Shown: positions 6,291 to 8,228 of the stretch, in pieces
Layout: every line of letters starts with the position of its first letter
Numbering within the stretch: position 1 is the stretch's first letter
Virus record (IMG/VR): IMGVR_UViG_2609460332_000001
Reading direction: 5' to 3' (one strand)
Source of the DNA: a virus
Lineage: Duplodnaviria > Heunggongvirae > Uroviricota > Caudoviricetes
Length of the DNA: 24,516 bases
Position numbers and translations under genes: made by a program
Notes under the pieces: generated by a model
Databases searched by the model: none
What the model saw: the letters and a program-made list of their open reading frames with translations, nothing else
Told to the model about the DNA's origin: nothing

Positions 6291-8228
6291 GTGACTCTTA
6301 AACGGGCCTGTTCCCTGCTGACGGTGAAATCCTTCAGTGAGGATGAACGGGTGATCACCGGGATTGCGTCAACGCCTTCTCCGGATCGGGATGGTGACAT
6401 CCTGGAGCCGGAGGGCGCGGAGTTTGGCAGTGCGATCCCGTTTCTCTGGCAGCATGACCATTCCCGCCCGGTGGGGCAGTGTACGGTGCGCCGGGTCAGC
6501 GAAGGGCTGGAAATCACGGCAACACTGGTGAAGCCCGTACCGGATATGCCGTCGCAACTGGCTGCCCGGCTGGATGAGGTCTGGGCGGCCATTAAGACCG
6601 GGCTGGTCAGGGGGCTGTCCGTGGGCTTCCGTCCCCATGAATACACCTTTCTGGACGGAGGCGGACTGCATTTTCTGCGCTGGGAACTGATGGAGGTGTC
6701 TGCCGTCACCGTGCCCGCGAATGCGGAATGCACCATCCGGACCATTAAATCTTACGACCGCCCGTTTTCTGCCGCGTCCGGCAACCGGAAACCGGTGGTG
6801 AAAATCGCATCTTCTGCCGGCGCTGCGGCACAGTCAACAACCGTTTTTCATAAGGAAAAGACCATAATGAATATTGGCGAACAGATTAAAAGTTTTGAAA
6901 ACAAGCGTGCAGCGCTGGCAGCCTCCCTTGAGGAGGTCATGACCAAAGCCGCAGAGGAAGGGCGCACGCTGGATGTGGAGGAGGAAGAGCATTACGACAA
7001 CACCGCAGCGGAAATCCGTCAGGTGGATGCGCACCTGAAGCGCCTGCGTGAACTGGAAGCCGGTAAGGCCGCCACGGCGCAGCCGGTGAAACAGGCCGGT
7101 AACGGGAATGTGGCCGCGGTGGCTTCTGCGCCGGTGATCCGTGTGGAGCAGAAACTGGATAAGGGGATTGGCTTCGCCCGCTTTGCCAAATCGCTGGCTG
7201 CGGCTAAAGGCGTCCGATCTGAAGCCCTGGAAGTGGCCCGTCGTCAGTATCCGGATGACAGTCGTCTGCATCATGTCCTGAAATCGGCAGTGGGCGCGGG
7301 GACCACCACGGATCCGCAGTGGGCAGGCAGCCTGTCTGAATATCAGGAATACGCACAGGACTTTATTGATTACCTGCGTCCGCAGACCATTATCGGGCGA
7401 TTTGGTCAGGGCGGGATCCCTGCACTTCGTCAGGTGCCATTCAATATCCGTGTGCACGCCCAGGTGTCCGGCGGTGCTGCCGGCTGGGTGGGTGAGGGTA
7501 AGGCAAAACCCCTGACGAAGTTTGATTTTGAATCCATCACCTTCAGTCATGCGAAGGTGTCGGCCATTGCGGTACTGACGGAAGAATTGATCCGTTTTTC
7601 CAGTCCGGCTGCTGATGCACTGGTCCGTAATGCGCTGGCGGAAGCGGTGGTGGCGCGTCTGGATACAGACTTTGTGGACCCGAAAAAAGCCGCAGTGGCA
7701 GATGTCTCCCCGGCGTCCATCACCCATGATGTGAAGGGCACGGCATCAACCGGTAACCCGGATGCGGATGCAGAGGCTGCGTTTGGACAGTTTGTGGCAG
7801 CAAACCTGCAGCCCACCGGTGCGGTCTGGCTGATGTCCAGCACCAATGCCCTGGCACTGTCCATGCGTAAAAATGCGCTGGGTCAGAAGGAATACCCGGA
7901 CATGACCCTGCTGGGTGGCTCCTTCCAGGGGCTGCCGGTGATTGTCTCCCAGTACGTGGGTGACCAGCTGGTGCTGGTGAATGCCCCGGATATTTATCTG
8001 GCGGATGACGGCGGCGTGGCAGTGGATATGTCCCGCGAGGCATCACTGGAAATGCAGTCTGAGCCGACCGGCGACAGTACCACGCCGTCCCCGGTGGAGC
8101 TGGTTTCCATGTTCCAGACAGGCAGCGTGGCCATCCGTGCGGAGCGCTGGATCAACTGGCGTCGTCGCCGTACTGCGGCGGTGGCGGTGATCACCGGAGT
8201 GAACTACGGCAGTGCGTCCGGCGGCTGA
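6291..8228 (+). CDS. prohead serine protease (S78/HK97 gp4-like) fused in frame to a scaffold-like coiled coil and an HK97-fold major capsid protein
   Basis: N-terminal protease-like motifs (ITGIASTPSPDRDGDIL, GLSVGF, EVSAVTVPANAE), central coiled coil, C-terminal major-capsid-like region; internal in-frame ATG at 6867 with AAGGA RBS could give the capsid protein alone. Confidence 0.8.
   Translation: MTLKRACSLLTVKSFSEDERVITGIASTPSPDRDGDILEPEGAEFGSAIPFLWQHDHSRPVGQCTVRRVSEGLEITATLVKPVPDMPSQLAARLDEVWAAIKTGLVRGLSVGFRPHEYTFLDGGGLHFLRWELMEVSAVTVPANAECTIRTIKSYDRPFSAASGNRKPVVKIASSAGAAAQSTTVFHKEKTIMNIGEQIKSFENKRAALAASLEEVMTKAAEEGRTLDVEEEEHYDNTAAEIRQVDAHLKRLRELEAGKAATAQPVKQAGNGNVAAVASAPVIRVEQKLDKGIGFARFAKSLAAAKGVRSEALEVARRQYPDDSRLHHVLKSAVGAGTTTDPQWAGSLSEYQEYAQDFIDYLRPQTIIGRFGQGGIPALRQVPFNIRVHAQVSGGAAGWVGEGKAKPLTKFDFESITFSHAKVSAIAVLTEELIRFSSPAADALVRNALAEAVVARLDTDFVDPKKAAVADVSPASITHDVKGTASTGNPDADAEAAFGQFVAANLQPTGAVWLMSSTNALALSMRKNALGQKEYPDMTLLGGSFQGLPVIVSQYVGDQLVLVNAPDIYLADDGGVAVDMSREASLEMQSEPTGDSTTPSPVELVSMFQTGSVAIRAERWINWRRRRTAAVAVITGVNYGSASGG

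Follow-up and report, generated by a model that had tools for sequence, protein, structure and literature searches.

The subject of this analysis is an open reading frame (ORF) in the virus record IMGVR_UViG_2609460332_000001 (Caudoviricetes), whose complete 24,516-nucleotide (nt) sequence is referred to as the window. The ORF spans positions 6291..8228 of the plus strand without interruption, begins with GTG and encodes 645 amino acids (aa) followed by a stop codon, so that a prohead protease and a major capsid protein share one reading frame. An in-frame ATG within it (6867-6869, codon 193) is considered here as a second, nested start. The gene is preceded by those for the small and large terminase subunits (TerS and TerL) and followed by a small conserved ORF and the genes for the portal, head-tail connectors, major tail protein, tape measure and a J-like tail fibre; this is a lambdoid siphophage's late operon. 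The initial annotation of this DNA had described the 645-codon ORF, its GTG start and AGGAGG ribosome-binding site, an upstream hairpin, and the ATG at 6867 with its own AAGGA, and all of these coordinates proved correct when checked on the sequence. The elements in question are listed below.

6252..6279, plus strand: terminator-like hairpin (GAACCGC-TCCG-GCGGTTT followed by a T-run) between the gene for the large terminase subunit and the fusion gene, from a hairpin scan and from relatives.

6280..6285, plus strand: AGGAGG Shine-Dalgarno (SD) sequence of the long product, read from the sequence, 5 nt 5' of the GTG; GGAGG is kept in relatives.

6291..8228, plus strand: long ORF, a protease-linker-delta (scaffold)-capsid fusion, supported by the ORF call, by Pfam, by PHROG family phrog_617, which spans the whole fused length (aa 1-639), and by the same annotated extent in phage BP-4795.

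6339..6743, plus strand: HK97-type (S78) prohead serine protease domain, aa 17-151, with catalytic His55 (CAT, 6453-6455) and Ser110 (TCC, 6618-6620).

6744..6866, plus strand: hypervariable, disordered linker, aa 152-192, which differs among relatives in both length and sequence and has a predicted local distance difference test score (pLDDT) <50 for aa 152-191; its 3' end doubles as the putative internal translation-initiation region.

6852..6857, plus strand: internal SD sequence AAGGA(A), read from the sequence, 10 nt 5' of the ATG and encoding Lys188-Glu189 in the long frame.

6867..8228, plus strand: nested in-frame ORF of 453 aa, delta (scaffold) plus capsid, beginning MNIGEQIKSF; proposed as a second, major product on comparative start evidence and on local guanine-cytosine (GC) content and minimum free energy (MFE).

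6873..7076, plus strand: aa 195-262, a coiled-coil-like helical hairpin at the core of the delta/scaffold domain, with AlphaFold2 helices at 195-223 and 229-262 (pLDDT ~91) and a TIGR01554 match from aa 204.

7326..8225, plus strand: HK97-fold capsid shell domain, aa ~346-645.

Profile searches, fold searches and an AlphaFold2 model all backed the reading of the ORF as an S78 protease, a coiled-coil segment and an HK97-like capsid domain. Pfam assigned Peptidase_S78 (PF04586) to aa 48-152 with 34.7 bits (cut-off 21) and Phage_capsid (PF05065) to aa 386-635 with 53.1 bits (cut-off 24.2). TIGR01554, the HK97 major capsid model that includes the delta domain, scored 78.1 bits against a cut-off of 27.5, with aa 204-584 corresponding to model positions 3-355. 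TIGR01543 (HK97 prohead protease) reached 46.5 bits, which is under its equivalog cut-off of 59, and the protease is therefore a member of the family and not a close equivalog of HK97 gp4. Aligned directly, residues 1-192 showed 29% identity to HK97 gp4 (E 4e-9), with Ser110 opposite the serine of GMSVGF and the histidine offset by one residue from the HK97 histidine in the BLAST alignment. No Clp family was found among the Pfam matches of the protein, its N-terminal domain matching S78 and HK97 gp4 instead. An exhaustive HMMER search of cluster representatives returned 12,577 relatives, and full-length fusions made up 144 of the best 150 (38-54% identity). His55 and Ser110 are invariant in the family alignment, and the catalytic histidine and serine are kept in 143 of these 144 fused representatives. 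We regard the N-terminal domain as an S78-type prohead protease, which would act on the delta domain or scaffold.

For the capsid part, the comparison with HK97 that the initial annotation had called for was less productive than for gp4, as no significant alignment to HK97 gp5 was obtained with BLASTP, and the maturation cleavage site is consequently not mappable. A non-significant match would place the mature N-terminus near aa 331-340, and helices are predicted up to aa 331; cleavage between K331 and S332, an initial guess, lies about 5 residues off this weak HK97 alignment and was dropped. A sequence search of the PDB returned a single weak capsid match (Bxb1, E 0.0017), and fold searches were therefore needed. 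In the predicted model, the protease domain is assemblin-like and the capsid domain has the HK97 fold. The AlphaFold2 model itself, built from a 43-sequence alignment with a mean pLDDT of 77.5, comprises a confident protease (aa 17-151), a disordered segment (152-191), a confident hairpin (195-262), further helices reaching aa 331 and, starting at about aa 346, the capsid fold. According to this model, M193 stands exactly where the disordered linker gives way to the scaffold (delta) domain.

A complete initiation signal is present at this domain boundary. The ATG at 6867 is preceded by the internal SD sequence, for which a duplex free energy of -6.2 kcal/mol was calculated, and the 50 nt around the start have a GC content of 30% compared to a gene mean of 60% (lowest 1%), with an MFE of -3.5 compared to -14.3 kcal/mol. 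A -1 slip at GTTTTTC (6843-6849), by which ribosomes would reach a TAA overlapping the ATG (TAATG), was also considered and dropped, since TAATG is not conserved in relatives.

The conservation of this signal was followed in GTDB genomes and IMG/VR, which supplied 160 related loci. These derive from Alpha-, Beta- and Gammaproteobacteria and from contigs placed in Actinomycetes, Planctomycetes, Clostridia and other groups. Protease and capsid occupy a single stop-free ORF in 138 of these loci, giving 118 distinct junction sequences. While the linker (~40 residues) is unalignable among the 144 fused representatives and varies in length as well, a methionine is found within a few residues ahead of the conserved (A)EQI with which the delta domain begins in 126 of them, and most of the others have a valine there. 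At the nucleotide level, the N-terminal codon of the capsid part is ATG at 109 of the 118 unique junctions, GTG at 6 and TTG at 1, with none of these found within nine codons at the remaining 2; wherever valine occupies the internal-start position, it is encoded by GTG.

The SD signal ahead of these codons is equally consistent. Predicted pairing of positions -20..-3 with the 16S anti-SD averages -7.6 kcal/mol at the junctions, compared to -2.6 kcal/mol at 73,044 other in-frame codon positions and 3,665 other in-frame ATG/GTG codons; energies of -5 kcal/mol or lower are reached at 91% of junctions (17-18% of controls) and of -10 kcal/mol or lower at 30% (0.3-0.5% of controls). Many junctions contain AAGGAGGG or GAGGAGGG. 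Purines make up 95-97% at positions -12..-9 (0.8-1.0 bit), between flanks of low information, and SD and start are separated by 5-10 nt, most often by 8. A purine-rich linker composition was ruled out as the source of the signal by a shifted-window control, in which windows 18-54 nt further upstream in the same linker reached -5 kcal/mol in only 3-15% of cases. Furthermore, the stretch around the internal start is poorer in GC than the gene average in 116 of 116 loci (median percentile 0.3%) and folds more weakly, by 6.8 kcal/mol. Taking one representative for each 60%-identity cluster (22 fused clusters), 20 have ATG and 2 have GTG, and 82% have an SD of -5 kcal/mol or lower. By these sequence comparisons, the internal start signal is far above chance, and the initial annotation's proposal of a nested start at 6867 with its own ribosome-binding site is strongly supported by start codon, correctly spaced SD and GC/structure minimum over approximately 116 distinct junctions, as well as by relatives with separate genes.

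In these relatives, the capsid gene begins where the nested ORF would. Among the HMMER matches, 5 unfused capsid proteins begin exactly at query residue 193-196, and all 21 loci with separate protease and capsid genes start the capsid gene at a homologous M-x-x-x-AEQI with an SD sequence. The protease stop codon lies 0-106 nt 5' of the capsid start or overlaps it (ATGA/GTGA), and in several split loci it is in the same frame and within the SD sequence itself (TAAGGA, where the window has AAGGAA). Split and fused forms are interspersed: several split loci share 74-80% identity with a fused neighbour over the capsid part, and 4 of 27 clusters contain both forms. Judging from these alignments, the fused gene is the split arrangement less a stop codon, with the capsid initiation region intact, and the switch between the two forms has happened repeatedly.

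We propose that the gene yields two 3'-co-terminal proteins from one mRNA, one of 645 aa (from GTG 6291) and one of 453 aa (from ATG 6867), and we assign this reading a probability of roughly 0.8. Initiation at GTG 6291 would produce the HK97-type serine protease, a flexible linker of about 40 residues, and the scaffold (delta) and HK97-fold capsid domains in one chain, while initiation at ATG 6867, with its own SD in an AT-rich, weakly structured stretch, would produce the delta plus capsid protein that serves as the ordinary building block of the shell. Since HK97-type capsid proteins turn their delta domain towards the procapsid interior, as established for HK97 (PMC10275583), a protease linked to the N-terminus of this domain would be carried inside as the long form takes part in assembly as a capsid subunit. 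The covalent tether would thereby replace the non-covalent targeting of systems with separate protease and capsid genes, the ratio of the two initiation rates would set the number of proteases per shell, and after assembly the protease would remove itself, the linker and the delta domains. The initial annotation had likewise suggested two products, for which the comparative evidence speaks; its description of the shorter one as capsid alone needs correction, as this product would contain scaffold (delta) and capsid.

Several points weigh against this proposal. No ribosome profiling (Ribo-seq), N-terminal peptide, western blot or virion proteomics data on initiation at 6867 were found in the literature. 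The internal SD of the window is moderate (AAGGA, -6.2 kcal/mol, 10-nt spacer) and the upstream one is a perfect AGGAGG, so that the ratio of the products is not predictable; in the window, the long form combines the better SD with a GTG start, and the short form combines an ATG and a moderate SD with an unusually open context. GTG as upstream start is limited to the E. coli lineage, while relatives have ATG, and across the family an ATG preceded by a good SD is the usual upstream start, which gives no general sign of a down-tuned long form; the idea that a weak start codon generally restrains it was ruled out on these grounds. Moreover, the related loci share ancestry, which inflates raw p-values and makes the cluster-level counts the safer ones, and given the frequent interconversion of fused and split genes, some individual fusions could be recent and their signal a relic.

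The last point leads to the explanation that survives best among the alternatives, although we consider it unlikely, namely that all subunits are made as the 645-aa fusion, that the protease is freed by autoproteolysis, and that neither the internal ATG nor its SD has a function, both being relics of a two-gene ancestor. Frequent fused/split interconversion makes such relics conceivable, the upstream start has a strong SD, and the papers on Pseudomonas phage MD8 (PMC8508860) and on the RcC phages (PMC8601537) describe a single product and no internal start. However, the linker has diverged past recognition, and yet the start codon, the SD, their spacing and the low GC content persist in 22 independent clusters across phyla. 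In addition, the sole substitute for the methionine is a GTG-encoded valine, which is the pattern of a start codon rather than of a drifting residue.

Considerably less probable still is a constraint on the protein instead of an RNA signal, with the methionine and the preceding K-E-G or K-G being kept as a recognition or cleavage site of the protease or because the delta domain begins with them. The residues directly after the methionine (N/K-T/I-I-A-E-Q-I) are indeed conserved as protein, and a cut separating protease from delta domain is expected at some point of the linker. The SD core, however, occurs in two codon registers (48 and 59 cases) that encode differing residues (K-E-G, K-G, E-E-G and others), while the purine block holds its distance to the ATG, and the constraint is therefore on nucleotides and not on amino acids. 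The invariable use of GTG for valine, the occurrence of the same SD and ATG as non-coding or out-of-frame sequence in split relatives, and the GC/structure minimum, which is an RNA-level feature, likewise speak against a protein-level constraint. That the long ORF is an artefact or pseudogene, a stop codon or frame having been lost in a decaying prophage whose functional state is two genes, is a notion that the frame-broken tape-measure gene of this possibly defective prophage and the existence of split relatives might encourage, but it has almost nothing left to it given the same intact ORF in the inducible or propagated phages 2851, BP-4795, YYZ-2008, PAJU2 and FSL SP-016, at full length in 1,248 E. 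coli genomes, and with intact catalytic residues in 144 diverged clusters.

Beyond the synthesis of two products, we tentatively suggest, at a little less than even odds, that most capsid subunits arise by internal initiation and that the long form is a minor one delivering the tethered protease. This would constitute an unrecognised, widespread strategy (at least 144 clusters, several phyla), in which a single stop codon toggles between non-covalent (split) and covalent (fused) delivery while the capsid initiation region stays untouched.

The linker itself shows further regularities. At about 6790-6830 (aa 167-180) of the window, and also in P0121-P0270, the motifs (K)P-V/F-V-R/K/I-L/I and P-G-A/V-S-G (SAGAAA in the window) recur, and a P-F-V-I motif also closes the protease of split relatives. 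These motifs may represent an autoproteolytic site or a remnant of capsid targeting.

In HK97, gp4 (protease) and gp5 (delta plus capsid) are adjacent, separate genes with a stop codon between them, whereas the window gene is one ORF, and the gene order relative to the portal differs as well. HK97 gp4 continues for about 60 C-terminal residues past the last aligned position, where the fusion instead has a linker that reads through into the capsid. This C-terminal region of the HK97 protease was reportedly described by Duda et al. in 2013 as the (non-covalent) capsid-targeting part. Nested in-frame protease/scaffold genes are known from lambda (C/Nu3), the herpesvirus HSV-1 (UL26/UL26.5) and the archaeal virus HFTV1 (gp17/gp17.5), with the latter recently demonstrated by Ribo-seq and lambda having SD sequences at both starts (bioRxiv 10.64898/2026.09.13.751334). 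In genes of the lambda C/Nu3 type, the long product carries an N-terminal protease, and an internal in-frame start at the domain boundary gives a truncated, 3'-co-terminal and more abundant assembly protein. As far as can be read from its sequence, the window gene has the same layout, and the likeness to C/Nu3 drawn by the initial annotation was apt in that an in-frame internal start with a ribosome-binding site lies at the boundary of protease and assembly domain. However, the nested product of lambda, HSV-1 and HFTV1 is a free scaffold, with the capsid protein encoded by a separate gene, whereas the nested ORF of the window includes the capsid domain, so that its long form, unlike theirs, would be a shell subunit. 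Furthermore, the lambda C protease is ClpP/S49-like and that of the window belongs to S78. On this comparison, the window gene appears to work like the C/Nu3 type but to be a variant and not a member of it.

Composite genes for protease, scaffold and capsid have been described for Gifsy-2 (Effantin et al. 2010, as cited in PMC12315714) and for Pseudomonas phage MD8 (PMC8508860), and a fused capsid/protease was noted in Rhodobacter RcC phages (PMC8601537). Gifsy-2 and MD8 resemble the window gene in combining the three functions in one ORF but have a ClpP-like protease together with a lambda/Mu-like scaffold and capsid, and no sequence relationship of the window gene to their composite genes was found. 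As a separate observation, the composite capsid gene of Gifsy-2 (22471-24561 in L165), which has been studied by experiment, has one in-frame ATG at the protease/scaffold boundary (codon 221, ~23131) with GAGGAG 9 nt upstream; in this single sequence, the SD is among the gene's top 3.4% and local GC content among its lowest 3%, and codon 221 is a possible Nu3-like nested start. The same nested-start logic may thus extend to ClpP-type composite genes such as that of Gifsy-2. NCBIfam NF045541 ('prohead protease/major capsid protein fusion protein') names the same architecture, but the window protein scores only 54 bits against its cut-off of 525 and therefore belongs to a different fusion lineage.

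The protease-capsid fusion as such is already known, having been annotated for about 20 years in Shiga toxin (Stx) phages as 'major head protein/prohead protease', and the fusion described by the initial annotation is therefore not a discovery. Its DNA shares 98-100% identity with that of long-tailed Stx-converting phages and their relatives; at this identity, BP-4795, YYZ-2008, 2851 and JLK-2012 carry the same gene at the same 645-aa extent, with an ORF that is no different, and it is annotated as 'putative major head protein/prohead protease' in BP-4795 (ORF56), YYZ-2008 and JLK-2012. In Pseudomonas phage PAJU2, ORF003 (48% protein identity) is annotated as 'prohead protease fused capsid protein' within the same gene order of TerS, TerL, fusion, small ORF(s) and portal. 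The fusion gene was found in 1,255 of 5,426 complete E. coli genomes, with up to 7 copies per genome, and many complete genomes have it with 100% identical DNA. The nested 453-aa coding sequence (CDS), on the other hand, is not annotated in any of 117 matching phage records nor in the RefSeq E. coli annotation, and no mention of an internal start in a protease-capsid fusion was found in the literature on composite capsid genes, nor did papers on CBASS escape, Cluster O phages, phage 0105phi7-2, AH14a and Ab31 contain anything of relevance, although an earlier mention in Effantin 2010 or Duda 2013 is possible. As far as can be told, the conserved nested start is thus an undescribed variant of a known expression strategy. 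Some database proteins (P0001, P0123 and P0132; ~1,080-1,094 aa) have about 440 extra N-terminal residues ahead of the protease-capsid fusion, and P0001 carries terminase, protease and capsid Pfam domains; these proteins could be further fusions or artefacts of gene calling or assembly.

The hairpin between the terminase gene and the fusion gene consists of 7 pairs (4 of them GC) around a loop of 4 nt at 6252-6269, followed by TTTTATTTTC. The initial annotation was right about its presence and terminator-like appearance, but alone it is not significant, as the scan found 1 site where 2.4 were expected from shuffles. It is nevertheless conserved, with CCCGC-loop-GCGGG and a T-run found 5' of the fusion gene in all enterobacterial relatives examined; the loops differ and the stems vary, variants in L003, L013 and L102-L139 including CCGC, CCCGC, GCCCCGC and AGCCCG. 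This sequence conservation suggests a functional RNA or terminator element within the late operon.

The surrounding genes offered additional observations. The order TerL, protease-capsid, small ORF(s) and portal (4566-10863 in the window) is kept from E. coli phages to those of Pseudomonas (PAJU2, 455-6057 in L164) and Moraxella (Mcat6, L163), whereas the portal gene usually lies 5' of protease and capsid. The 73-aa ORF between capsid and portal genes (8273-8494) matches phrog_829, a family of unknown function, over its full length, and all relatives list it as a 'hypothetical protein'; in PAJU2, two small ORFs take its place. The portal ORF (8440-10863) encodes 807 aa with a long C-terminal extension that weakly matches a carbohydrate-binding module and contains, at 10027-10397, a tandem repeat of 162 base pairs (2.3 copies, 93% match), corresponding to 54-aa repeats; its BP-4795 equivalent is annotated as two CDSs, portal and hypothetical. 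The tape-measure gene (13855-17096) is split into ORFs at 13855..15048 and 15063..17096 in different frames, which match phrog_339 at positions 3-415 and 427-1116, and this frameshift may indicate a defective prophage or a sequence error.

If every capsid subunit carried its own protease, each shell would contain hundreds of them, and a nested start would explain how phages can tune protease copy number, while providing a mechanistic link to lambda C/Nu3 and to herpesvirus UL26/UL26.5. There are consequences for annotation as well. Roughly a quarter of complete E. coli genomes have the gene, Stx-converting phages included, and it has variously been named 'major capsid protein', 'prohead protease' and 'capsid and scaffold', while its probable main product of 453 aa has never been annotated. 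Finally, the repeated toggling between fused and split forms amounts to a natural experiment on the targeting of proteases into procapsids.

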